A stretch of DNA of 40,092 bases from a virus (taxonomy: Duplodnaviria > Caudoviricetes), in IMG/VR virus record IMGVR_UViG_3300044262_000062, positions 1 to 40,092 of that record; one strand, 5' to 3'. Position 1 is the stretch's first letter, and each line of letters opens with the position of its first letter. Positions 1,283-38,721 of the stretch are shown piece by piece. A program made the translations under genes and the position numbers. The notes beneath the pieces were generated by a model. It was not told the DNA's origin. It ran no database searches and saw nothing but the letters and a program-made list of their open reading frames with translations.

Positions 1283-3614
1283 CCGCATCGCGCAAGCGGC
1301 CCTGCAGCAGGCCGAGCAGCTGCTCGGCGAATGGCTGCCCGAGGGCCGGCGCGACGGGCACGAATGGAAGGCGCTCAACCCCACCCGCGGGGACAGCGCC
1401 ATCGGCAGTTTCTCCGTCAACATCAACACCGGCCGGTGGGCCGATTTTGCGACTGGCGACAAGGGCGGCGACCTGGTGTCGCTGTATGCCTACCTGTTTA
1501 CGCCCGGCGAGCAAGGCAAGGCGGCGCGCGAGCTCGCCGAGCGGCTGGGGGTGGCCATGGAAGACGTCAAGCCTCGGGGCGCGAAAGATGCGCCCGGGGG
1601 CGCGGCGGCACCAACCCAGAGCGGGCCGAGCGCCAAGGCGCGATCAGCCTGGCAGCCTATTTTGCCGGCGCCAGCGGATGCCGGTGCGCCACCGGTGGCC
1701 CACTATGCCCGCGGGCGGCCGGAACACACCTGGTGCTATCGGGACGCAGAGGGCCGGGTGCTTGGGCATGTGTACCGGTTCCGGACATCTGACGGCGGCA
1801 AGGAAGTGTTGCCGGTGTGCTGGGCGCGACACGCGCAGACCGGGGCCGAGGAATGGCGATGGCTTGCCTTCCCGGAACCGCGGCCGCTCTACGGACTTGA
1901 CCGGCTGGCCGCCGCGCCGGGGATGGACGTGCTGGTGGTGGAGGGCGAGAAGTGTGCCGAGGCGGCAACCCGCGAGTTGCCCGGATACGTGGCGATATGC
2001 TGGCCCGGCGGCGGCAAGGCGGTGGGCAAGGCGGATTGGTCGGCACTGGCCGGGCGGCGGGTGACGATCTGGCCGGATTGCGATGCGCAGCTCGACAAGG
2101 CCGGCCAGCTGCTGCCCGAGGAACGCCAGCCGGGGACGATGGCCGCCGAGGCAGTGGCTGCCGCGCTCGCCAAGCACGGATGCGACATCACACTGGTGCG
2201 GATCCCGAAACCGGGCGCGGTGGTGGCCGGCTGGGACATCGCCGATGCCATTGCCGAAGGGATGACCGGACAGGCGCTTGCCGATTATATTGCCGCGCGC
2301 CGCGCGCCGCCCGCGGTGAGCGCTGCCAAAACGGCCCCGCGGCCCGGAAAGGCTGCCGCAGAGGACAAGGACGATTGGCGCGCGAAGCTGCTCTGGAAAA
2401 AGGGCGAGCTGGTAGCCTGCCTCGCCAATATCTTCGACATTCTCAGCCACTCCTCGGAATGGGACGGGGTGGTGGCGTTCGACGAATTCCAGCAGGCCAC
2501 CATGAAGCGCAAGCCGCCGCCCTGGCCGGGCGCGACGGTGGGCGAATGGGACGATAACGACGATGCCATGGCGGCCATGTGGCTCACCCGGCATTTCGAT
2601 ATTGCGCCGAGCAGCAAGATGACCCTGGAGGCGATCGAGACGCTGGCCCGGCGCCATGCGTTTCACCCGGTGCGCGACTGGTTGCGCAGCCTGCCGGCAT
2701 GGGACGGCGAGGAACGGTTGCGGACCTGGATCAGCGACTGCCTGGGCGCGGAGAACACGGAATATACCCAGCGGGCCGGGCGGTGGTACCTGATGGGCAT
2801 GGTGGCGCGGGTGATGCAGCCGGGGGTGAAGTTCGACTACTGCCTGGTGCTGGAAGGTGCGCAGGGGAAAAAGAAAAGCGCCGCGCTCGAGGCGCTGGCC
2901 GGGGAGTGGTTCGGCGATACCGACCTCGACCTGCACAACAAGGATTCGATGTTGGCGTTGCGCGGCAAATGGCTCTACGAGTTCGCCGAGATGGGGTCGG
3001 TCACACGCGCTGAGACCACCAAACAGAAATCATTCCTGTCACGGCGGGTGGATGAGTTCCGGCCCGCGTATGGGCGGCGGCAGGTTCGCTGCCCCCGCCA
3101 GGTGGTGTTTGCGGGGACCACCAACGACTGGGAGTGGAACAAGGACCCGACCGGCGGCCGGCGGTTCTGGCCGATCGACTGCGCCAGCGAGCTCGACCTC
3201 GAAACGTTGCGCAAGCAACGGCCGCAGCTTTTTGCCGAGGCGCTGGCGGCATGGGAAGCCGGCGAGCGGTTTTGGCCGAGCCCGGAGGAGCAGAAGGCGA
3301 TTTTCGACCCGCAGCAGCTGTTGCGCGAGCAGCCGGAAAGCCTGGTGGATGCGCTGCACGACTGGGTGTTCGACCAGATCAAGGAATTCTCGGTGGCGCA
3401 TGCGGTGATGGACGGCCTGAAACTCGACGCCTCCAAGCTCACGCGCGATTTACAAACCCGGGTTGGCGTGGCGCTGCGCCGGCTCGGGTGCGCCAAGGTG
3501 GAACGACGCAACGGGATGGTTCGCTACTGGTACAAGCCGCCAAAGAAAGCGGCAACGTCCGGCGAATCGAGCGGCATACCGGTTCATGAGGAGATTGACC
3601 ATGCGCCATTTTAG
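1257..3614 (+). CDS. Primase-helicase (Toprim domain + VirE/VapE-like P-loop ATPase)
   Basis: WADFATGDKGGDLVSL N-domain; Toprim VLVVEGEK...WPDCD; Walker A-like VLEGAQGKKKS; FAGTTN...DPTGGRRFWPI. Confidence 0.88.
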   Translation: MARPKLDFDRIAQAALQQAEQLLGEWLPEGRRDGHEWKALNPTRGDSAIGSFSVNINTGRWADFATGDKGGDLVSLYAYLFTPGEQGKAARELAERLGVAMEDVKPRGAKDAPGGAAAPTQSGPSAKARSAWQPILPAPADAGAPPVAHYARGRPEHTWCYRDAEGRVLGHVYRFRTSDGGKEVLPVCWARHAQTGAEEWRWLAFPEPRPLYGLDRLAAAPGMDVLVVEGEKCAEAATRELPGYVAICWPGGGKAVGKADWSALAGRRVTIWPDCDAQLDKAGQLLPEERQPGTMAAEAVAAALAKHGCDITLVRIPKPGAVVAGWDIADAIAEGMTGQALADYIAARRAPPAVSAAKTAPRPGKAAAEDKDDWRAKLLWKKGELVACLANIFDILSHSSEWDGVVAFDEFQQATMKRKPPPWPGATVGEWDDNDDAMAAMWLTRHFDIAPSSKMTLEAIETLARRHAFHPVRDWLRSLPAWDGEERLRTWISDCLGAENTEYTQRAGRWYLMGMVARVMQPGVKFDYCLVLEGAQGKKKSAALEALAGEWFGDTDLDLHNKDSMLALRGKWLYEFAEMGSVTRAETTKQKSFLSRRVDEFRPAYGRRQVRCPRQVVFAGTTNDWEWNKDPTGGRRFWPIDCASELDLETLRKQRPQLFAEALAAWEAGERFWPSPEEQKAIFDPQQLLREQPESLVDALHDWVFDQIKEFSVAHAVMDGLKLDASKLTRDLQTRVGVALRRLGCAKVERRNGMVRYWYKPPKKAATSGESSGIPVHEEIDHAPF

Positions 3615-3623
3615 CGCACGAGG

Positions 3624-3888
3624 GTTCCCAACCTCGGCGAGGTTGGGAGGAGGTTGGGAAGGCTAGAACCCGCGCCGTTATTGGGTTTTCCTAACCTTCC
3701 CAACCTTCCCAACCTTTTTTCGATGCTCACATGCGTGACGTGAGGTTGCGCGCAACGTTGCGCGCAACGTCACGTCACGCGAGGAACACAAAAACAGGTT
3801 GGGAAGGTTGGGAAGGTTAGGAAAACGTAAGCTGGGCGCGGGTTTTTGGGTTCCCAACCTCTGTTGGTAGGTTGGGAAGGTTGGGAAC
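3624..3888. repeat. 265-bp imperfect palindrome with GGTTGGGAA repeats; probable replication origin
   Basis: Perfect 31-bp inverted arms 3685-3715/3796-3826; central GTTGCGCGCAAC x2 (3745-3768); outer GTTCCCAACC/GGTTGGGAAC; directly after primase-helicase. Confidence 0.8.
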
Positions 3889-12033: not shown

Positions 12034-12486
12034 ATGCAACTCAACGCACTCGCCAGCGAGCTGGCGGCGGTCGTCGGCAATATCGACCCGGATGCCTACG
12101 CGGCCAGCACGGTCACCACCGGCTGGATCGACGCATCGAAATTCCAGCAGTATCTGGCCATCGTTCAGGCCGGTGACCTGGGCGCCAGCGCCACGCTGGA
12201 TGCCAAGCTGGAACAGGCCACCGATGCCAGCGGCACCGGCGCCAAGGACGTGACCGGCAAGGCCATCACCCAGCTCACGCAAGCCGGCACCGACAGCAAC
12301 AAGCAGGTGGTCATCAACCTCACCCCCTCGCAGCATCTCGACATCGACAACGGATTCGATCACTTCCGCCTGTCGATGACCGTGGCCGTGGCGGCTTCCG
12401 ACGCCGGCGGCATCGTGCTCGGGCTCAATGCCCGCCAGGGCATCGCGAGCGACAGCGACGCCACTACGGTCGACGAGATCAAGTAA
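12034..12486 (+). CDS. Virion structural protein (capsid decoration-like)
   Basis: AGGAG SD; Ala/Thr/Gly beta-rich 150 aa directly after the capsid gene. Confidence 0.65.
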   Translation: MQLNALASELAAVVGNIDPDAYAASTVTTGWIDASKFQQYLAIVQAGDLGASATLDAKLEQATDASGTGAKDVTGKAITQLTQAGTDSNKQVVINLTPSQHLDIDNGFDHFRLSMTVAVAASDAGGIVLGLNARQGIASDSDATTVDEIK

Positions 12487-12553
12487 CCGGGCATCCCAGG
12501 TGGTTGGTGTTCAGGCGGCCAGCGATGGCCGCCTGTCTTTTCGGAGGTGAACG

Positions 12554-12787
12554 ATGTCAACCCTGCGTATCCGCTTCGTGCGCGAGTATGAGGTGAAGGA
12601 CGAACTGCGCACCCGCTACAAGGTCGGGCAGCGACTGGAAATGCCAGAGGCCTCGGCGCAGCACTTCATCAGCCGCGGCGCTGCCGTGCCGGACGACGAA
12701 CCGTCCCGCACCGAGCCGCTGCCGCTCGAGACCGACACCGGCACGGACGACGAACCGTCCCGCAAGGACAAGAAGGCCAAGAAATAA
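12554..12787 (+). CDS. Small hypothetical head-region protein
   Basis: GGAGG SD; internal 21-bp direct repeat 12690-12710/12744-12764 (DDEPSR twice); Lys-rich end. Confidence 0.7.
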   Translation: MSTLRIRFVREYEVKDELRTRYKVGQRLEMPEASAQHFISRGAAVPDDEPSRTEPLPLETDTGTDDEPSRKDKKAKK

Positions 12788-26482: not shown

Positions 26483-27127
26483 CTAGAAGACGGCCTTCAC
26501 CATGAAGTTAAAGGCCCCCGTCTGGAGTGGCGTTACCGCGTCTCCCTTGCTTGAGACATCAAGGTAGTAGTAACGCACCCCAAATTCAATTCCCTCATAC
26601 CTGACGCCAAACCCAACCATCGGCCGGTAGAGCATCACGTCCTTACGGGAAAACTCGGTGAGTAGATTGCCATCCGCATCCAGCACCGCAACCTGAAACT
26701 TGTTCTTGTAGGCGTAGATGCCGGCCTCCGAGAACATCGGCACGCCGAGAATCTTGAACGGACCCTGCACCGCAAGTTCTACACCAGACACGCTGCCGCG
26801 CCCCTGCACCCACACATACTGCCCGCCATCCGGCATGCCGGGCGCGTAGCGATGGTCCCCGACGACCTGTGCCATGTTGTACATCTGGCCGAGCGCCACG
26901 AACGCGGCGCGGTAGCGGTACTTGCCGACCTTCTGGCTGAGCCCGACCGACAGCGATTCGGACTCCAGATCGAACCAATGCGGAAGGCCGTCCTGATACC
27001 ACGCGCCGTCGTGCTGCGCCTGATAACTGGTGAGGCCGGCGCCGATCTCGATGTCCGCGGCTTTTGCCGGCATATAAGCAGCCGCTAACAGGCAGGCGGC
27101 GAGGATTGCATAGTTGATCTTTTTCAT
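26483..27127 (-). CDS. Outer-membrane beta-barrel protein (moron)
   Basis: AAGGAG SD; signal peptide ending AKA; alternating beta strands; C-terminal FMVKAVF with terminal Phe. Confidence 0.75.
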   Translation of the reverse strand: MKKINYAILAACLLAAAYMPAKAADIEIGAGLTSYQAQHDGAWYQDGLPHWFDLESESLSVGLSQKVGKYRYRAAFVALGQMYNMAQVVGDHRYAPGMPDGGQYVWVQGRGSVSGVELAVQGPFKILGVPMFSEAGIYAYKNKFQVAVLDADGNLLTEFSRKDVMLYRPMVGFGVRYEGIEFGVRYYYLDVSSKGDAVTPLQTGAFNFMVKAVF

Positions 27128-27168: not shown

Positions 27169-28827
27169 TCACACCACCTTCCCGGTGGCCGGAAAGAGCA
27201 GAGAATTAGAGAATCCTGCCCCCGCTACCACCGTTGTCTGCAACCGGCCTCCTGTTGCTATGCGCAGCAGGCCGGTGTAGACCCCTTCCAAGTTGGCCTC
27301 GACCTCCTGGCGCCCCGGTACGGGCGTCAGGGGGATATGCCCCAGCAGTTCGGCCAGGTCCGCCCGTGTGGCGGCTGTGTCGGCTGGGTGGCCGTTTTCA
27401 AGACTCTCTACCATTTTTCGGTATTCGTCCACCGCGCCCGGGATGATCTCGGGCACCGGCGCGATCGCGGCGGCCAGGTCTGCGGCTACCTGGTCGCGTT
27501 CGGTTTCGGCGGCTTCCAGGGCCCTTGTTAGGGCCTTGGAAGCCGTGCCGGCGCGGATGGCGGCCACCATGCGGCCGATCTCGGCCTCGAGGCGGTCCAG
27601 CCGCGCGCGCAGGGGCTTTGCCGGGTCGTCCCGCCGGGCGGCGCGCAGCTCGCGGGCGAGCTCGGCGCGGAAGGCTTCGACTGCATCGGGGCTGAGCAGG
27701 GTTTCCTTCACGGCGGCGAGGATCTGGCGCTCGAGCTCGGCGCGGTGCACCCGCAGGCCATTGCGGCAGACGGCCGGGCCGCGGTCTTTGTGGGCGGCGC
27801 AGCCGTACTGGCCGCGGTAGACCACCACATAGGCCCCTCCGCAGACCCCGCAGCGCAGGATGCCCGAGAGCAGGTAGGACGGTTTGCGGCCGGTCTTGAG
27901 TGGCCGGCGGGTGGCCAGGCGTTTCTCGGCGGCAGCCCATGTTTCCGGGTCCACAATCCGCAGTTCGGGCGCGGGCTGGATGATCCACTCGGACCTGTCC
28001 CGCTCGCGGCGGTGGCGCTTGCCGGTGTCGGGGTCACGTACCCAGCGGGATCGGTTCCAGATCAGCGTGCCGCCGTAGATGGGGTTGTTCAGTATCCCGA
28101 CGCCGGAGCGGCGATCGCCATAGATGGCCGACACCGCCCAGGTGCTGCCTCGAGGCGAGGGGATACGCTGCGCGTTCAGCCGGTGGGCGATTTCGCGCGG
28201 CGAGCAGCCGGCGGCGAACTGCTCGAAGATCTGCCGCACGATGCCCGCCTGGTCCGGGTCCGGTTCGCGGCGCACGGCGACGACTACCGGCCGGCCGTAG
28301 GTGTCAGTGCGGGTCGGGTCGGTGATGGGCACATGGCGATAGCCGTAGGCCCGGCCGCCGGCATTGTTGCCCTTGAGCACCTGGCCGGCGAGCCCGCGGT
28401 GGGTTTTCTCGGCGAGGTCGATGGAGTAGATGGAGTCGATCATGCCGCGCGCGCCGCGGGTGATCACGCGCTGCTGCAGCGGCATGTGGGTGTCGTAGCC
28501 ATCGGCGCTCAGCACGCGCACGCCGATGAATTCCAGCCGGCGGATGGCCAGCCCGCGTTCGTCCTGGTCGCGGCCGAGGCGGGAAAGGTCATCGAGCAGC
28601 AGCACCTGAAACTCGCCGGCCTTGGCCGCCGCCAGCGTGCGCTGGTAGTCGGAGCGCGCCGGGTTCCAGCCGGAATCGGCAAAGTCCCGGAACCGCAGCC
28701 GCACCGGCTGCCCCAGCTTATCCGCCGCCAGCTTGTCGATCTTGCGCTCCTGGTCCTCGATCGACTCGTGGCGCTGGTTGTCGGAGCTGTAGCGGGCGTA
28801 GCTGGCGGCTATGGTGTCTGGTGTCAT
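27169..28827 (-). CDS. int: Large serine recombinase (integrase)
   Basis: YARYSSDNQ catalytic Ser; DDLSRLGRD; recombinase domain; zinc ribbon LLSGILRCGVCG...YGC...C; coiled coil. Confidence 0.95.
   Translation of the reverse strand: MTPDTIAASYARYSSDNQRHESIEDQERKIDKLAADKLGQPVRLRFRDFADSGWNPARSDYQRTLAAAKAGEFQVLLLDDLSRLGRDQDERGLAIRRLEFIGVRVLSADGYDTHMPLQQRVITRGARGMIDSIYSIDLAEKTHRGLAGQVLKGNNAGGRAYGYRHVPITDPTRTDTYGRPVVVAVRREPDPDQAGIVRQIFEQFAAGCSPREIAHRLNAQRIPSPRGSTWAVSAIYGDRRSGVGILNNPIYGGTLIWNRSRWVRDPDTGKRHRRERDRSEWIIQPAPELRIVDPETWAAAEKRLATRRPLKTGRKPSYLLSGILRCGVCGGAYVVVYRGQYGCAAHKDRGPAVCRNGLRVHRAELERQILAAVKETLLSPDAVEAFRAELARELRAARRDDPAKPLRARLDRLEAEIGRMVAAIRAGTASKALTRALEAAETERDQVAADLAAAIAPVPEIIPGAVDEYRKMVESLENGHPADTAATRADLAELLGHIPLTPVPGRQEVEANLEGVYTGLLRIATGGRLQTTVVAGAGFSNSLLFPATGKVV
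27211..27230 (+). other. attP identity segment matching the 3' end of initiator tRNA-Met, inside the 3' end of int
   Basis: GAATCCTGCCCCCGCTACCA matches T-loop 3' side, T stem, acceptor strand and CCA of tRNA-fMet; rest of tRNA absent. Confidence 0.78.
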
Positions 28828-28830
28828 ACG

Positions 28831-29106
28831 CTAACCCGTATTTTCGCCTGTGTTCGCGTCTGAACGCGGCATATCATCCGTTTCGAGCCGTACCATGGTC
28901 CCGATAATAATCCCGTTCGGCTGCTTTGTGTAATGCACGGTGACCGACCACACACCGTGCTTCAAGGCACGCAGGCCGGTGACCTTTCCCGGGCATCTGT
29001 TTTCGCGATGCCACTTGCTCCGGCAGTTCTTGCCGGGCGTGGTGCAGAACCGTTGATTCTCTTTGGTCGGCTCAACCGGCTCTTTGCAGTAGTCGCAGGG
29101 TTTCAT
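28831..29106 (-). CDS. Small zinc-finger protein (possible recombination directionality factor)
   Basis: CDYC...FC...C; ATGA overlap with RT stop; ends 3 bp before int start. Confidence 0.65.
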   Translation of the reverse strand: MKPCDYCKEPVEPTKENQRFCTTPGKNCRSKWHRENRCPGKVTGLRALKHGVWSVTVHYTKQPNGIIIGTMVRLETDDMPRSDANTGENTG

Positions 29107-30311
29107 GGCGCCGGTTTCCGGGGAAACGCTTTCGTAAGGTGGCCATTCACGGCATGGCCGCGCCGGCGCAGGCGGCGTGCGAGCTCGATCCGATCGGCAT
29201 GACTGTGCGTGGCCTGGCGCAGGAGGCCAAAATAGCTGTTGGCGGTTTCAAACAACCGGCCCGCGCTCAGCCGTTCGATCCGGTTCAGGCTCGCGTTCAG
29301 TGTTCGCCGGCGCAGGGTGCGGCGCCACGGCTTGACGACCTGGCCTACAAAGTCGATGCCGCGCTCGATCGGATGCAGGATGGTTTTGGACGGGTTCAGG
29401 CGGACGGCCAGCGTTTCGGGCAGAAAGGCCTCAATGTCGGCGTGGGCGGCGTTGAGCCACTGTGGGGATTCGTGCAGGAGCACGAAGTCATCGACGTAGC
29501 GGATGTAGTGCCGGGCGCGCAGGCGATGCTTGGCGTGCTGGTCGAGTTTGTCCAGGTAGACGTTGGCGAAGAACTGCGATGAGAGATTGCCGATCGGCAG
29601 TCCGCGGCCGGCTGACTGATTGAACAGGCTCTTGTGCGGCGGGATGAGCCGCAGGCGCACCGGCGCGCTGCGGAGGATGGCGTCCTCGCGCGGGTCGTGA
29701 AACAGGATGGTGTCGGTGAGCCACATCCACCATGATTCGGTGATCCGTCGGGCGAGCCGATCGCGCAGGATGCGCTTATCGATGCTGACGAAGAAGTTGG
29801 CCACGTCGCACTTGAGATACCATGCCGGCCGCGACCAATTCTGTGTGATGCTGCGCACCTTCGCCTCGAGGCGCTGGGCGGCATAGAGCGTGCCGCGGCC
29901 GGGAATACACGCGCATGAATCGACAATGAACGAACGGTAGAACCGCGGCGCGATGCGGTTATAGAGCAGATGGTGCACGATTCGATCGCGGAAGCCGGCG
30001 GCCCAGACTTCGCGCGGTTTGGGACGGGTGATGACGAAACAGACGGACGGCCCTGGGCGGTAGGTGCAGGCCTGCAACTCCTCATGGAGCTGAATCAGAT
30101 TTCGTTCCAAGTCCTGCTCAAAGGCGAGCGCCGATAGGCTGTTGCGCTTAGTGCGGCGACAATCGAAATAGGCCGCTACCAGTTCCTCGAAAGAAAAATC
30201 AGCATGGCCGGCATCTTCACCGGGTTGATCTGCGGACGGCCCGCGCGCGGAACTCGTTGTTCTTGTGGTTGTAGTTCTGGTTGCCGTTGCCGAAGTTCTG
30301 GTTCCAGGCAT
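29103..30311 (-). CDS. DGR reverse transcriptase (start uncertain; conserved domain begins near 30200)
   Basis: KPREVWAAGFRDRIVHH, LKCDVANFFVSI, GLPIGNLSSQFFAN (DGR-type GxxxSQ), YIRYVDDFV, GIDFVG; nearest in-frame ATG (30311) is inside TR. Confidence 0.93.
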   Translation of the reverse strand: MPGTRTSATATRTTTTRTTSSARGPSADQPGEDAGHADFSFEELVAAYFDCRRTKRNSLSALAFEQDLERNLIQLHEELQACTYRPGPSVCFVITRPKPREVWAAGFRDRIVHHLLYNRIAPRFYRSFIVDSCACIPGRGTLYAAQRLEAKVRSITQNWSRPAWYLKCDVANFFVSIDKRILRDRLARRITESWWMWLTDTILFHDPREDAILRSAPVRLRLIPPHKSLFNQSAGRGLPIGNLSSQFFANVYLDKLDQHAKHRLRARHYIRYVDDFVLLHESPQWLNAAHADIEAFLPETLAVRLNPSKTILHPIERGIDFVGQVVKPWRRTLRRRTLNASLNRIERLSAGRLFETANSYFGLLRQATHSHADRIELARRLRRRGHAVNGHLTKAFPRKPAP

Positions 30312-30336
30312 AGTCCGCGTTCTCGGCGTGCTGCGT
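30228..30336 (-). repeat. DGR template repeat (TR)
   Basis: ACG CAG CAC GCC GAG AAC GCG GAC TAT GCC TGG AAC CAG AAC TTC GGC AAC GGC AAC CAG AAC TAC AAC CAC AAG AAC AAC GAG TTC CGC GCG CGG GCC GTC CGC AGA; nine AAC codons. Confidence 0.96.
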
Positions 30337-30522
30337 TGGTTCGCGCTATCTACGTCGCCCGGCCGAAGGTCCCCATACTCCTGGGTGCCGATCAGCGGGG
30401 GAACTGTGCCGGAGCGGCCCGGCACGGGATGGCCGGCGATCTCCGTGATGCACATGGCGGTGGCCTCGTGAGCCAGCGGCGCGACCAGATCAACAGTCGC
30501 ACGGTCCTGGCCGCCGTGACGG

Positions 30523-30879
30523 TCAGGCAACAGGCGACGATGCATTGTGTTTTCTCCAACCGTTGGCCTGCTTGCCGACGCTGGCGGTGAGCTCGATGGC
30601 CTTGGCGTACTGGCCGGTGGAAATGAACCGCTTGTCCCGGCAGAGCCTCAATAGCAAGTTGAGTTCTTCCAGGCGCTCGAGCAGGTTGTCGAGCAGCGGT
30701 ATCTTGGCCCGGGCGCAATTCGCCTTGAAGACCAACAGCACCAGGTCGACGCACAGATCGCGCACCCGCCCTCCGATCGATACACGGAACGGACGCGGCA
30801 TGTTCTGCACGTAGTCCGTGGCCACGCTCAAGAGGTCGTAGGCGACCTTATAAATCGGCAGTTGGGTGTGGAGGGCCAT
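30523..30879 (-). CDS. avd: Accessory variability determinant (four-helix bundle)
   Basis: LPIYKVAYDL...LLRLCRDKRFIS...VGKQANGW; between target genes and TR. Confidence 0.9.
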   Translation of the reverse strand: MALHTQLPIYKVAYDLLSVATDYVQNMPRPFRVSIGGRVRDLCVDLVLLVFKANCARAKIPLLDNLLERLEELNLLLRLCRDKRFISTGQYAKAIELTASVGKQANGWRKHNASSPVA

Positions 30880-30904
30880 GCTGATGAAAATCTAAATTGT
30901 TAAA

Positions 30905-31399
30905 TTACCGAATAATTAATCTGCGGACGGCCCGCGAGCGGAACTCGTTGTACTTGTGGTTGCAGCCCTGGCCGCCGTAGCCGAAGTACTGGCCCCAGGC
31001 ATAGTCCGCGTCCTCGGCGCGCTGCTCGCAAGACCAATACCACTCCTTCTCGAACATCTCCGGAACATTGGCGAATTGCAGCGCCTGCTCAGCGCGGAAT
31101 GGCAACGTGAAATCCCGATGACCTTCGGCTTCCATTGATGCCGCGGCACTCTTCGCTTTCTCCCATATCGTTTTATCGATGCTCTGACCGACAATCAGGT
31201 GGTAGTCCGGTTCCCCCTCACGGCCACGCATGATGCCGGCGTAGACACCGCCCTGGCCAGGCCAGGGTTGGCCGATGCGCGGGATGCTGATGCCGCGCAG
31301 GTCTGCGGGTGCGGCGCTTCCCGCGAGACGCTGCAAGACCATAGCGATAATCTCGGCGTCGGCCACCTGGATGGTGACGCCGTTGCGAGTGATGTTCAT
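30905..31399 (-). CDS. DGR target protein 1 (DUF1566/CLec-like, 164 aa)
   Basis: AAGGAG SD before ATG 31399; GHRDFTLP...WYWSCE...FRSRAVRR; VR1 at C-terminus. Confidence 0.9.
   Translation of the reverse strand: MNITRNGVTIQVADAEIIAMVLQRLAGSAAPADLRGISIPRIGQPWPGQGGVYAGIMRGREGEPDYHLIVGQSIDKTIWEKAKSAAASMEAEGHRDFTLPFRAEQALQFANVPEMFEKEWYWSCEQRAEDADYAWGQYFGYGGQGCNHKYNEFRSRAVRRLIIR
30919..31025 (-). repeat. Variable repeat VR1
   Basis: 107 bp aligned to TR 30228-30334: 12 substitutions at TR adenines plus one G>T in the 3' GC-rich tract. Confidence 0.95.
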
Positions 31400-31434
31400 C
31401 GGTTGGCTCCTTAAATTGATGAATTGTTGAATGG

Positions 31435-31938
31435 TTAAAGTTTGATCGTGCGGACGGCCCGCGCGCGGAACTCGTAGCCCTCGTGGCCGCAGTCCTGGAG
31501 GCCGTCGCCGAAGTCCTGGCCCCAGGCATAGCCCGCGTACTCGGCGTGCTGCGTGCTGGACCAATACCAGTTGCGGTCAAACGCTTCTTTCGCGCCTTCC
31601 GCGAACGCTTTCACTGTCGCGAGCTCGTGATAGGCCAGCAGCAACTGCAGGCGGCTTGGCAAGTGCCAATCGTCGAAGCCGCCGATCCGAAGTGCCAGCA
31701 TCTTCGCCGCGAGTTCGCTGCCGGCTTTGGCCATCGCCTTGGTGTTGGCGAGCCCGTCGCAATAGCTCGTGGCGCCGGCGACGCTCGTGGTTGAGCTGTT
31801 CCAGCGCATGGGCGCAATCTGGCCTTTTGCCTTCGGTGCGACGATCAGCGCATGGGGTTGATCGCCGATGAAGAAGCGGCCGGCGAAGAACCCGCCTTCG
31901 AAGCGGGTGCCGGGTTTGGGGAGTTTCAGTTTTGGCAT
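31435..31938 (-). CDS. DGR target protein 2 (DUF1566/CLec-like, 167 aa)
   Basis: GGAG SD; DGLANT, GGFDDWHLPS, WYWSSTQ...FRARAVR; VR2 at C-terminus. Confidence 0.92.
   Translation of the reverse strand: MPKLKLPKPGTRFEGGFFAGRFFIGDQPHALIVAPKAKGQIAPMRWNSSTTSVAGATSYCDGLANTKAMAKAGSELAAKMLALRIGGFDDWHLPSRLQLLLAYHELATVKAFAEGAKEAFDRNWYWSSTQHAEYAGYAWGQDFGDGLQDCGHEGYEFRARAVRTIKL
31449..31554 (-). repeat. Variable repeat VR2
   Basis: 106 bp aligned to TR 30231-30336: 16 substitutions, all at TR adenines. Confidence 0.96.
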
Positions 31939-31982
31939 GTTGATAGTTCTCCATTAAGAAGTCAGTTCACACAGAGGTCAGT

Positions 31983-32318
31983 TCACAGCATGTACCCGGT
32001 TTCACCAGGAGAATCGAGCATCCCGCCATCCGGATCATGCCCACCGTTTTGTTCATGCTGCGGGCAACGTCTATACTCGTAACGTTCAAGACTCATCACC
32101 AACCGCAGCGCCATCGCCGCAGTCTGAATGGCTTCTTTCCGTATTTCTTCTGCGCTGGTCTTGTGCGGTTCGTAGACCATCTGCAACATGGCCTTGTTTA
32201 ACTCGCCGTATTCCTCGCCGAGCACTGCCAACGCGTGAAGCGGGTCGTTCGGCCACGTCGGGAATTTCGTCGTTGCCCGCTGAACTTCATCCAGTACTTG
32301 CTCAATCGGTGCGCTCAT
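31983..32318 (-). CDS. MazG-like (all-alpha NTP pyrophosphatase fold) protein
   Basis: GGAG SD and ATGA overlap at 32318; LGEEYGELNKA...KEAIQTAAMA. Confidence 0.65.
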   Translation of the reverse strand: MSAPIEQVLDEVQRATTKFPTWPNDPLHALAVLGEEYGELNKAMLQMVYEPHKTSAEEIRKEAIQTAAMALRLVMSLERYEYRRCPQHEQNGGHDPDGGMLDSPGETGYML

Positions 32319-32489: not shown

Positions 32490-32693
32490 TCAGTCGGCCT
32501 GTTTGCGCAGGAACGCCGGAATGTCGAGCGGCACATCGTCTGGCGGAACGAGGGCATAGGACCGCCGCGGCCCGGGGCCGATGGCAAATTGCACTTCGCC
32601 GTTTTCGATGGCGAGGATGCGGATCTCGATCGGGCCGGTGGTGAGGTTGTCCACCTGCTTGATCTCGCCGGGCTTGCCTTTGAGGATGAGCAT
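32490..32693 (-). CDS. CsrA/RsmA-like protein ending in an FtsZ C-terminal peptide (67 aa)
   Basis: GGAGG SD, TGATG coupling; MLILKGKPGE...IEIRILAIENGEVQFAI; C-terminus LDIPAFLRKQAD-stop. Confidence 0.82.
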   Translation of the reverse strand: MLILKGKPGEIKQVDNLTTGPIEIRILAIENGEVQFAIGPGPRRSYALVPPDDVPLDIPAFLRKQAD

Positions 32694-35936: not shown

Positions 35937-36239
35937 TCACGGCCTATCCTCCACCGGGCGCACCACGCCATACTGCTGTAGGGCATGCTTGCTGAGTTCG
36001 TAAACGGCGTTGACCGCCTGCCACTGGGCATCGTTGCGGGCGCGTAGCACCTGGTGGTCGGGTTCGCTCAGCCAGTCTTGTGCCCACAGGTGGATGCGCC
36101 GCACTTCTCCGGCAGAGCAGTCCTCGAGCACCTCAAGGACCGCCCGTATCCGGTGCGCACCCGTGCGGTATTCGAGCAGCAGCTCGGCGATCGCGCGCGG
36201 GGTTCGCGCTTCGATGGCGGCGCGGAGCATGGTGTTCAT
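35937..36239 (-). CDS. Hypothetical protein
   Basis: GGAGGT SD; ATGA overlap. Confidence 0.65.
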   Translation of the reverse strand: MNTMLRAAIEARTPRAIAELLLEYRTGAHRIRAVLEVLEDCSAGEVRRIHLWAQDWLSEPDHQVLRARNDAQWQAVNAVYELSKHALQQYGVVRPVEDRP

Positions 36240-36661
36240 GCCGCACCTCCAGACTTCGGGCGTTGATGGTGCAGGTACTTGGCTACCCTTTTTCGCTTTT
36301 CGTCAGCCCTTGCATAGATTTGATCACGGCGAAGATCTCCGGCCTCAAACATCAGGCGCACCGCGCACAATCCATCGCCGAGCTCGCGCTCCAACCATCG
36401 GCGGTTAGTTTCTCCACCGTTAGGGTGCGTACTCTCGTAGCCATGCCGCAGAATTTTGCCGATTGCCTGAATGGCCTCAGCGAGTTCTTCGGTAAGCAGT
36501 GCGAGGCGTTCGCCTTCGGCTGGCGTGAGTTTATTGACTCGACGCTCATCGATAATCCGATCGATCAGCGTTGGGTCTTCGCAATCGGGCGCTAAGCACC
36601 TCAGGTTCCCGCCTTCTACGATGACGATGGACTGCAAGCCACATGACGGGCAATGTGTCAT
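36236..36661 (-). CDS. MazG-like nucleotide pyrophosphohydrolase with N-terminal Cys motif
   Basis: CPSC...C..C; LTEELAEAIQAIGKILRHG...LERELGD (EExxE...ExxD). Confidence 0.75.
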   Translation of the reverse strand: MTHCPSCGLQSIVIVEGGNLRCLAPDCEDPTLIDRIIDERRVNKLTPAEGERLALLTEELAEAIQAIGKILRHGYESTHPNGGETNRRWLERELGDGLCAVRLMFEAGDLRRDQIYARADEKRKRVAKYLHHQRPKSGGAA

Positions 36662-37485: not shown

Positions 37486-37525
37486 TGTTTAATATACTCA
37501 ATCTTAATTGTCAAGTAGATTAAAC
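37486..37525 (-). promoter_or_regulatory. PL promoter with two 16-bp operators (37487-37502, 37510-37525)
   Basis: Minus-strand TTGACA-17 bp-TAAACA; GTTTAATATACTCAAT and GTCAAGTAGATTAAAC resemble the OR sites. Confidence 0.8.
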
Positions 37526-37534
37526 ATCACAGGC

Positions 37535-37561
37535 AAAAAAAAGACCGCCAGACTGGCGGCC
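37535..37561 (-). terminator. Intrinsic terminator ending the cI operon
   Basis: Minus strand GGCCGCCA-GTC-TGGCGGTC + T8. Confidence 0.85.
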
Positions 37562-37584
37562 CTGAATCGATACGGTGCGCGTGA

Positions 37585-38076
37585 CTACATCGGCATTGCC
37601 GTAACAATTCTGCAACTGGCTGTTTTGGCTTGATTATTCACGATCCCCATATTGATCTCGTTGACTGAAATCCGGCCTTTGGCACGCAATGGCTGATAGA
37701 TCACGGTTTGCGTGTCGCCCACGGAGGTGCCGCTGGCGGCATAAAGGCTGCAACGGATTAACGGGTCTTTCAGGTTTGTGTCTGTCGGGTTTTGGATGCG
37801 AACTCGGTGAAGAAGCATGACATTGCCGAATCCGCCCAGGCTCCACTTGTAATCGAACTTCAATTGGCGCACGGGATCCGGTTTGGCCGGCGTCGTAGAC
37901 GTTGGCGTCTCTGGACGGTCGACCATGATGACGCTCAAAAACAGAAATGCGAAAACCGCGCCGACCGTCCACGTGAGCCAGGACGTCTCTTTCTTTATCG
38001 GCGCCCCGCATTTTGGACAAGCGGCGGCGTCGGTACTCACGGTGTTACCGCAATCCTTGCATGTCGTCGTGCTCAT
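37585..38076 (-). CDS. Zinc-ribbon single-TM protein co-transcribed with cI (exclusion/defence candidate)
   Basis: CKDC...CPKCG, TM WLTWTVGAVFAFLFLSVIMV, beta-rich C-terminal domain; ATGA overlap with cI. Confidence 0.75.
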   Translation of the reverse strand: MSTTTCKDCGNTVSTDAAACPKCGAPIKKETSWLTWTVGAVFAFLFLSVIMVDRPETPTSTTPAKPDPVRQLKFDYKWSLGGFGNVMLLHRVRIQNPTDTNLKDPLIRCSLYAASGTSVGDTQTVIYQPLRAKGRISVNEINMGIVNNQAKTASCRIVTAMPM

Positions 38077-38450
38077 GATGTTTTCCGCGTTGGTGGTTTG
38101 AGTTTCGATAGGGCCTCAATGATTGTAATCGCGCGCTCTCGATCGTCATCATCCAAGGAACGAAAGCTGCGGAGCAGGCGAACTTCATCGTGATTGAACG
38201 TGCCATAGATCGACTCTGGTTCGCCCACACCGAGAGGTATTGATTTGTGTTCGCCAGTTGCAAGCCAGTGGGCATCGACGCCCAAGGCCCGCGCCGCGCG
38301 CGTTAAATTATCCCCTTCAATCGTTTTTGTCGCACCGCTCACCCATAGCGAGACCGTCGCGCGGCTGACGCCTGCATGTTTCGCGAGATCGATCTGCTTC
38401 ATGTGCGCTTTTTCAAGCGCCTCGATGATGCGGGACCGAAGGTCACTCAT
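38073..38450 (-). CDS. cI: CI-like repressor (XRE HTH, 125 aa, no S24 peptidase domain)
   Basis: MKQIDLAKHAGVSRATVSLWVSG...ARALGVDAHWLATGE; divergent from cro. Confidence 0.88.
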   Translation of the reverse strand: MSDLRSRIIEALEKAHMKQIDLAKHAGVSRATVSLWVSGATKTIEGDNLTRAARALGVDAHWLATGEHKSIPLGVGEPESIYGTFNHDEVRLLRSFRSLDDDDRERAITIIEALSKLKPPTRKTS

Positions 38451-38520
38451 GTTTAGAAATCTAAACGCATTTGTGTTTAAGAAGATTGACAAATGTTGTT
38501 GAGTGCGTTAAACATCCGCC
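38451..38520. promoter_or_regulatory. OR region: three 16-bp operators with PR and PRM
   Basis: GTTTAGAAATCTAAAC 38451-38466, GTTTAAGAAGATTGAC 38475-38490, GTTGAGTGCGTTAAAC 38498-38513; PR TTGACA(38486)-17 bp-TAAACA(38509). Confidence 0.82.
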
Positions 38521-38721
38521 ATGACGAAGAACGAAGCGATTCGGCTGTTCGGCACGACGAGCACAGACCTTGCCCGTGCCATGGGGTTGTCGCGCAGTCG
38601 AATTTCGCAATGGGACGACACGCTGACGCAGGAACAGACCGACCGCGTTATCGGCGCCGCCGTGCGCCTCGGCAAACTGCCGGCGACCCCGTGCTGCGAT
38701 CGCGAGCGGGGTGCGGCATGA
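38521..38721 (+). CDS. cro: Cro-like repressor
   Basis: MTKNEAIRLFGTTSTDLARAMGLSRSRISQW. Confidence 0.9.
   Translation: MTKNEAIRLFGTTSTDLARAMGLSRSRISQWDDTLTQEQTDRVIGAAVRLGKLPATPCCDRERGAA

Follow-up and report, generated by a model that had tools for sequence, protein, structure and literature searches.

Characterised phage diversity-generating retroelements (DGRs) retarget tail fibres, whereas the widespread clade described here aims at small early proteins, so its hypermutation may serve a fight inside the cell. What such a DGR diversifies, and against which partner, is the question raised by the window analysed here, which is the whole 40,092-base virus record IMGVR_UViG_3300044262_000062 of IMG/VR (Duplodnaviria; Caudoviricetes), and by the two-target DGR that it carries. 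An earlier note on this DNA had proposed that the element diversifies early small proteins rather than the tail fibre. The non-tail, early and signal-less context is borne out clade-wide, and the function is still a matter of interpretation. We favor, with a probability of about 0.55, a reading in which the targets are independent intracellular hypervariable binders in the early arm of a temperate phage, most likely binders of host defense proteins. Taken by itself, a non-virion intracellular role is rather probable, and we give about even odds to host defense or takeover proteins as the ligands.

The retroelement and its two targets

The window holds a complete and intact Avd-type DGR, both of whose variable repeats (VRs) have been rewritten at adenines. 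All of its parts lie on the minus strand: the genes of target A (31435..31938; 167 amino acids) and target B (30905..31399; 164 amino acids), avd (30523..30879; 118 amino acids; Pfam bAvd E 9e-15, 55.5 bits, cut-off 40; PHROG Avd E 5e-33), the template repeat (TR; 30228..30336) and the reverse transcriptase (RT; 29103..30455; RVT_1 E 3e-14; PHROG 1423 E 5e-118). The TR is AAC-rich, has 32 adenines and sits inside the open RT frame, in another phase. In the VR of target A (31449..31554), which ends in a GC-rich segment resembling an initiation of mutagenic homing (IMH) sequence, 16 of the 32 TR adenines and none of the 74 other bases are changed (Fisher p 1.6e-10). The VR of target B (30919..31025) has 12 of 32 adenines and one of 75 other bases changed (Fisher p 9.5e-7), the sole non-adenine difference being G>T. 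These recomputed counts, with 28 of 29 TR-VR differences at adenines over both VRs, are the same as those first noticed. A stop codon lies within 15 nucleotides (nt) of the end of each VR, and the record contains these three TR/VR copies only. Further, a profile of 236 targets run against the six frames of the record matched only both target genes and the TR; no virion gene had a VR or a target-family match. An inactive RT had been named as a sign of a dormant element; the gene reads as intact, with the motifs GLPIGNLSSQ and YVDD in place and no internal stop. That the cassette is a real DGR is virtually certain. On paper, the TR can encode about 1e18 amino-acid variants per target. Among the assembled contigs of four of the seven listed sequencing runs, none of which is recorded as containing RNA, one contig (run X1) covers both VRs with 0 differences, contigs being unable to reveal rare VR variants.

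The two proteins are built on the same predicted domain. Target A is a stand-alone Lcl_C/DUF1566 (CLec2) domain with no N-terminal extension (Pfam PF07603 E 1e-11, 45.6 bits, cut-off 34.9), and target B adds to this domain (E 5.8e-7, 30.3 bits, below the cut-off) a 39-residue beta-beta-alpha N-terminal extension; Pfam matched no other domain in either. Monomer structure prediction, suggested in the earlier note as a check, gave AlphaFold2 models with a predicted local distance difference test score of 96.8 for target A and 92.1 for target B, and both models have a lectin-type fold closest to the C-terminal domain of Legionella Lcl. This domain (8q4e) is the best Foldseek match in the PDB for the target A model (E 7.6e-5), with C-type lectins next, and it aligns with the target B model at Z 14.8 and a root-mean-square deviation of 2.4 over 116 residues (VIA-align). 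A C-type-lectin fold is therefore predicted for the targets. Mtd, TvpA and other DGR target structures are not in the fold match lists, which excludes nothing. An ESM Atlas search with the N-terminal 36 residues of target B gave no usable match, PHROGs likewise gave none, and a search for longer relatives of this protein returned one match. The description of the targets as tandem paralogs stands in that they are adjacent and related, but their core identity of 30% speaks for an old rather than a fresh duplication. A hydropathy screen (not SignalP) found no signal peptide, transmembrane segment or lipobox in either target, in agreement with the first reading: the Kyte-Doolittle 19-residue maxima of the two are 0.85 and 1.24, against 2.27 for a membrane protein of the window used as control. 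The target family also has no conserved cysteines. These traits, together with an extra N-terminal strand pair, separate the window targets from the surface proteins Lcl and LdtA, the latter being a Legionella DGR target assigned to the same target category d in the accessible part of Wu et al. (2018; PMC5758913).

The DGR type, in its architecture and target domain, is already catalogued, a fact missed by the first reading, which overstated the novelty of the element. In the accessible entries of the same catalogue, architecture B1, VR class CLec2 and target category d1 are given for Burkholderia cenocepacia H111, Pseudomonas sp. M47T1 and GM67 (Wu et al., 2018). The window shares with these the order TG-TG-AVD-TR-RT (TG, target gene) on one strand and two short DUF1566-only targets with C-terminal VRs, to which the catalogued elements sometimes add a remote third target; the entries give neither placement in a CI-controlled early operon nor a function. 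By description, the window element also resembles DGR clade 3 with target cluster PC_00009, presented in the available text of Roux et al. (bioRxiv 10.1101/2020.04.01.020958) as proteobacterial, often prophage-borne, related to the Legionella element and provided with uncharacterised targets, the early-operon position not being discussed there. Another close system is that of Burkholderia phage Magia (PMC7883833, NC_070954), whose RT is 68% identical and whose early arm contains avd together with two adjacent targets and a remote one; unlike the window phage, it is a myophage with a tyrosine integrase. Its authors noted short lectin-fold targets and suggested a role in host range, without experiment (PMC7883833). 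In Magia, gene 46 (12163-12627), annotated as hypothetical, carries a third VR with 11 of 27 adenines changed, whereas the announcement names genes 47 and 57 only. The BPP-1 element (mtd-avd-TR-brt) shares the order of Avd, TR and RT, adenine-specific mutagenesis and a C-terminal CLec VR; it has one tail target and a hairpin, where the window has two small early targets and an array of 8-nt units, neither a tail receptor-binding target nor a hairpin after the IMH being found. The window element is intact and belongs to a catalogued type, on whose biology the literature reached is silent. That literature, which consisted mostly of titles and listings with subscription journals largely missing, included no paper that tests these targets, describes the 8-nt array or remarks on the alleles captured by jumbo phages.

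Relatives of the RT were drawn from the best 80 of 128 IMG/VR loci and from 47 GTDB loci, mostly Beta- and Gammaproteobacteria, which with Magia, Haboob and the window make a set of 130 loci, duplicates included. Related RTs also occur in 11 cultured-phage records at 60-80% identity, and the window RT is 62-68% identical to those of Magia and Pseudomonas phages. Two VRs are present in 89 of the 130 loci, three in 20, one in 14 and none in 7, the last because too little upstream DNA is available; 109 loci therefore have two or three targets, and the median target length is 163 amino acids. Over 252 VRs, differences from the TR fall at 3162 of 7692 adenine sites and at 82 of 17441 other sites. 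Pairs of nearly identical loci show that mutagenesis has been recent in close relatives. One pair (L046 and L056) differs at 27 of 58 VR adenine sites and at 0 of 142 other VR, 0 of 100 TR and 1 of 2484 other sites; a second (L044 and L045) differs at 31 of 58 VR adenine sites and at 8 of 2796 sites outside VR and TR. Among the 23 pairs with an RT identity of at least 96%, 11 have this adenine-site pattern and 2 a single change; the other 10 are exact duplicates. Between the window and L081, its closest relative (RT 87% identical), differences fall at 25 of 64 VR adenine sites, 8 of 149 other VR, 3 of 107 TR and 296 of 2496 other sites. This relative lies on a 4.4-kb contig of a Planctomycetota metagenome-assembled genome, the other GTDB matches being proteobacterial, and it is possibly mis-binned.

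The 226 distinct VRs of the clade contain one stop codon. At their AAY codons, Tyr, Asp, Asn, Gly and Ser are frequent residues and Cys is scarce (0.7% vs 6.6% expected, assuming independent positions), a mix that would fit a binding surface but follows in part from the mutation spectrum. Three other codons hardly vary: CAG is changed in 2 of 559 cases, GAG in 4 of 147 and AAG in 2 of 196. We rejected purifying selection as the reading of these three codons, because TR adenines before G are almost never changed whether the change would be non-synonymous (15 of 880) or synonymous (1 of 30). The sparing of synonymous adenines as well points to an effect of sequence context.

Placement, retention and likely role of the targets

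In the window, the plus strand carries the primase/helicase, terminase, HK97-like head, tail and lysis genes, and the minus strand a CI-like repressor, a run of small genes, a cytosine methyltransferase, the DGR and a serine integrase. Every virion gene recognised by Pfam or PHROG is on the plus strand, opposite to the targets, as first reported. We extended this comparison to 60 dereplicated long-flank loci (from 68 eligible of 127), annotating gene clusters present in at least three loci. Early-type genes lie within 10 kb in 58 of the 60, an integrase or excisionase lies downstream in 51, and a repressor lies upstream in 30, on the RT strand in 29 of them. Tail genes were found in 6 of the 60, at about 8 kb or farther. 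The 119 directly flanking same-strand open reading frames (ORFs) include no tail, connector or capsid gene and one terminase, 48 having no match. An exception to the early context is a single target that follows the terminase large subunit in one locus (L020, 6491-8500). The early-arm cassette is shared by phages with unlike virions, namely the window phage, which is HK97-like with a tail tube match and no sheath match in Pfam or PHROG, and the myophage Magia.

Target genes are also kept by phages in which the retroelement is missing. Of nine Wroclawviruses with a target match, jumbo phages that we take to be lytic, seven were compared (L130, L132, L135-L138 and L142); no RT was found in any of the seven, Haboob serving as positive control. 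Each has an intact target copy whose DNA upstream of the VR is 91-94% identical to a Haboob DGR target, and together they carry four VR alleles. The copies vary at 24 of the 32 adenines of the Haboob TR, at 22 of the 68 remaining VR positions and at 60 of 372 positions upstream. PA5oct differs from this TR at 15 of 32 adenines and 1 of 68 other sites. Such close copies, in four alleles and without an RT, argue that finished DGR products have been captured and kept by phages with a very different virion. The excess of non-adenine variation in these VRs would fit other donor TRs or later adaptive change. In MIJ3 the captured gene has 56% GC inside a locus of 39% GC. In Paride (L135, 251-742) the intact target homolog is unannotated, and the record calls short opposite-strand ORFs instead. 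Retention by jumbo phages would point to a benefit during lytic growth inside the cell.

Near-identical target genes (80-94%) occur in siphophages, in a podophage by name and in 287-kb myophages. The complete element is found in Haboob and phPA-G, and fixed alleles of almost the same gene in PMG1, FBPa42 and PA5oct, so the role of the targets is testable in these cultured Pseudomonas phages. RT-less D3, PMG1, FBPa42 and PA5oct have one matching place per genome. In D3 this is orf68, the first gene after cI and on the same strand, the record matching residues 3-129 only. In PA5oct it is EST35_0104 (gp104), located in the terminal repeat and 32% identical to target A (E 6e-14); in the accessible text of Lood et al. 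(PMC7318152), "most of" the range gp34-gp105 is called early-transcribed. The gp104 protein is absent from the list of 93 virion proteins, reaching down to 8 kDa, in the consulted supplement of the same paper (PMC7318152). The earlier note had expected the targets to be absent from virions, and this homolog conforms, its identity of 32% making it evidence for the family and not for target A itself. The proteomics of MIJ3 is uninformative on its target because only four major bands were analysed.

We propose that lifting of CI repression would yield one early transcript giving the binders, Avd and the RT; that the RT would copy the TR with errors at adenines; and that the cDNA would replace each VR, which would be marked by its 8-nt tandem array and not by a hairpin of the BPP-1 type. 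Selection would favor progeny with a variant able to bind and block some obstacle in the cytoplasm of the current host, each target acting alone or as a homo-oligomer and not as part of an obligate A/B pair. In this scheme we infer early expression from the leftward promoter (pL), cytoplasmic location, array-guided homing and the class of ligand. We count in its favor the early context, the homologs in D3 and PA5oct, the Wroclawvirus alleles, the lack of conserved cysteines and of a signal, and the single stop in 226 VRs. Two longer homologs (P0003 and P0004) in which a target-family domain stands behind a sliding-clamp-like domain are counted as well.

Several observations weigh on the other side. 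The literature yielded no ligand, phenotype or expression data on this phage, nor on any genuine DGR target within the clade. The ten exact-duplicate pairs without VR change and the two with one change mean that activity is not visible in every copy. Clustering could also have under-counted tail genes, which are diverse, in the 60-locus context. The neighbors of the cassette are DNA-metabolism genes and not known anti-defense genes, and a search with PADLOC, whose models cover defense systems alone, was negative. The virion and timing evidence derives from a single orphan homolog, 32% identical, and what was called early is a range of genes rather than gp104; furthermore, a minor virion protein can escape mass spectrometry. 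The clamp similarity is weak (E 0.001-0.009 in Pfam and PDB) and confined to two proteins, the best PHROG there is labelled RusA-like, and the loci of the fusions were not found in a search that gave three relatives of the N-terminal part only. The target fold is also present in long phage proteins that are named as tail fibre or have collagen or S74 domains, and the solved structures closest to it are domains of surface adhesins. Lastly, an asymmetry in the N-terminal extension, described below, fits some division of labor between the two targets.

The same intracellular and early evidence would serve a role against competitors within the cell (co-infecting phages, resident prophages, satellites or plasmids), exerted either in the course of lytic growth or, by leaky expression, in the lysogen. 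Mobile competitors would evolve fast enough to favor hypervariation. However, a site behind the CI operators would imply silence in the lysogen, and the fact that jumbo phages lacking a lysogenic module keep the gene speaks against a role confined to the lysogen, though not against lytic competition. We regard competitors as a rather unlikely class of ligand.

The earlier note had further supposed a pair with combinatorial diversity, which in its strict form would be an obligate heteromer in which the variable surfaces of both proteins form a single combinatorial site. Two or three targets in 109 of the 130 loci speak for it, as does the distribution of the extension over 83 dereplicated pairs, where it is confined to the avd-proximal target in 55, reversed in 10, on both in 2 and on neither in 16. 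The commonest adjacent pairing is also B-A (41 loci), but B-B (19) and A-A (15) occur too, some loci have remote third targets, and co-located targets (median identity 32%) group on the tree no more closely than random pairs do. The RT-less phages with one matching place per genome keep one type-A gene. Because single copies occur and pairings vary, an obligate pair appears unlikely, and this part of the proposal was not supported.

A third possibility is that the targets are small accessories of the virion, for instance decorations of the capsid or tail, which are produced early, so that the DGR would adjust adsorption as it does in BPP-1. The characterised phage DGR targets covered in the available text of Roux et al. 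(bioRxiv 10.1101/2020.04.01.020958) are all virion proteins, the solved adhesin relatives agree with this, and the N-terminal extension modelled in target B could be a docking piece. Against it, no tail gene lies nearer than about 8 kb in the 60-locus context and none is among the 119 flanking ORFs, the homolog is absent from the PA5oct virion list, and genes 80-94% identical serve siphophages, a podophage and 287-kb myophages, which would offer no shared docking site. We consider it improbable. Also improbable, finally, is the reading that the DGR rides along in the early operon as a largely selfish or neutral element with targets of little importance: insertion sites within early arms vary widely and many related phages lack the element, but VRs with a single stop and depleted Cys, and intact orphan targets kept as several alleles in RT-less phages, argue otherwise.

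Possible target marking and the reading frame of the RT

In BPP-1 the DGR needs a hairpin after the VR, according to the part of the report consulted (PMC3240598). The window has no GC-rich hairpin after the IMH, the DNA minimum free energies being -2.2 and -2.9 kcal/mol over 65 nt, and of 212 clade VRs 3% reach -5 within +6..+45 and 16% reach -8 within +6..+70. Instead, four tandem 8-nt units (consensus about ATTYARYM) stand directly after VR A (31409..31440, minus strand), where a clade matrix that includes these sites gives its top score in the genome, and the scan with this matrix placed four more after VR B (30882..30913, minus strand). Across the clade, the lag-8 autocorrelation 3' of the VRs is 0.481 vs 0.279 (standard deviation 0.005) in shuffles. 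At least three units follow 183 of 212 VRs (164 of 191 adjacent and 19 of 21 remote), none of 105 TRs and 1.25% of shuffles. In the accessible entries of Wu et al. (2018; PMC5758913) the stem-loop is scored no, weak or strong, and 8-nt arrays go unmentioned. We propose the array as a candidate target-marking element in place of the BPP-1 hairpin; as a second kind of target signal, it would bear on DGR target choice and on DGR-based evolution tools. It is present in Haboob, in phPA-G and in one copy of phage U9, and the eleven other orphan-type sites have one unit, which may just mark the boundary of capture. At the U9 locus (L141, 2998-4221) two target-family sites stand in opposite orientations, one with and one without the array, and no RT is annotated within 3 kb.

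The position of the TR raises a second point of mechanism. The likely RT start, placed by a conserved in-frame ATG, is at 30455, upstream of the TR; the frame is open from 30545 and the RT core begins at about 30200. We searched 96 loci for this ATG without regard to frame and found the motif in 64, Haboob being among the 32 without it. In 62 of the 64 the ATG and the RT core share a frame, even though the distance between them takes 21 different values, the frame being kept through insertions and deletions. The RT frame is open through the TR in 60 of the 64 loci, and the other two frames in 1 and 9. The annotators of Magia chose the same conserved upstream ATG as the RT start. These patterns suggest that the RT may be translated through its own template repeat, a region said not to be translated in the accessible part of Wu et al. 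(2018; PMC5758913). We put forward only tentatively the combined picture in which temperate proteobacterial phages run an intracellular antibody-like library against the defenses of the next host, lytic jumbo phages without a DGR repeatedly harvest finished variants from prophages, arrays guide targeting and the RT is translated through the TR.

Control region and neighboring genes

The control region of the leftward operon comprises a CI-like repressor (38073..38450, minus strand; PHROG transcriptional repressor E 4e-15), Cro (38521..38721, plus strand; sequence match), two operator-like palindromes between cI and cro (rightward operator, OR; 38474..38514) and two at the head of the operon (leftward operator, OL, with pL; 37486..37526). 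These four, two at the expected pL and two at the expected pR position, are all that the palindrome scan found in the genome. With 1.55 expected in shuffles, what counts as evidence is where they lie and not how many there are. The terminator scan placed a ten-pair hairpin just above the OL palindromes (37541-37563) as the terminator of the cI unit; other minus-strand hairpins as far as the RT have five or six pairs, and their total is not above that of shuffles. The large serine integrase (27169..28827, minus strand; Pfam Resolvase, Recombinase and Zn ribbon; PHROG integrase E 6e-71) closes the operon. A sigma-70 scan of the window did not find a pL site and gave no more matches than shuffles. 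The common strand, the short gaps between genes and the absence of a strong terminator suggest co-transcription from pL. The CI-controlled leftward operon of the earlier note has its repressor, Cro and operator-like sites upstream of the DGR, and this layout makes CI control itself likely.

The neighbors first named for the targets were MazG-like, methyltransferase and FtsZ-tail genes. A MazG match (36236-36661; Pfam E 0.005; PHROG NTP pyrophosphohydrolase) and the cytosine methyltransferase are there, but the gene directly upstream of the targets belongs to no named family. A relative in run X7 skips this gene (31939-32313), and a 10-nt direct repeat with 16-nt spacing (31960-31990, minus strand) lies just upstream of the target A ribosome-binding site. 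The C-terminus LDIPAFLRKQAD of a 67-residue ORF (32490-32693, minus strand) matches the FtsZ C-terminal peptide (2vaw_A, E 1.1). Its N-terminal part has no library match and looks to us CsrA-like by eye, and the protein could be a decoy of the division machinery.

Record-wide checks found no terminal repeat that would indicate circularity, and a Dam-like gene is split between the two ends of the record, its halves not joining in frame. After the integrase, a 214-residue gene (26483-27127, minus strand) without a match in Pfam, PHROG or PADLOC begins like a signal peptide and ends in Phe, as an outer-membrane barrel moron would. Immediately after the primase/helicase gene stands a 71-nt inverted repeat (3650-3861; 85%), which is possibly an origin or a regulatory structure.

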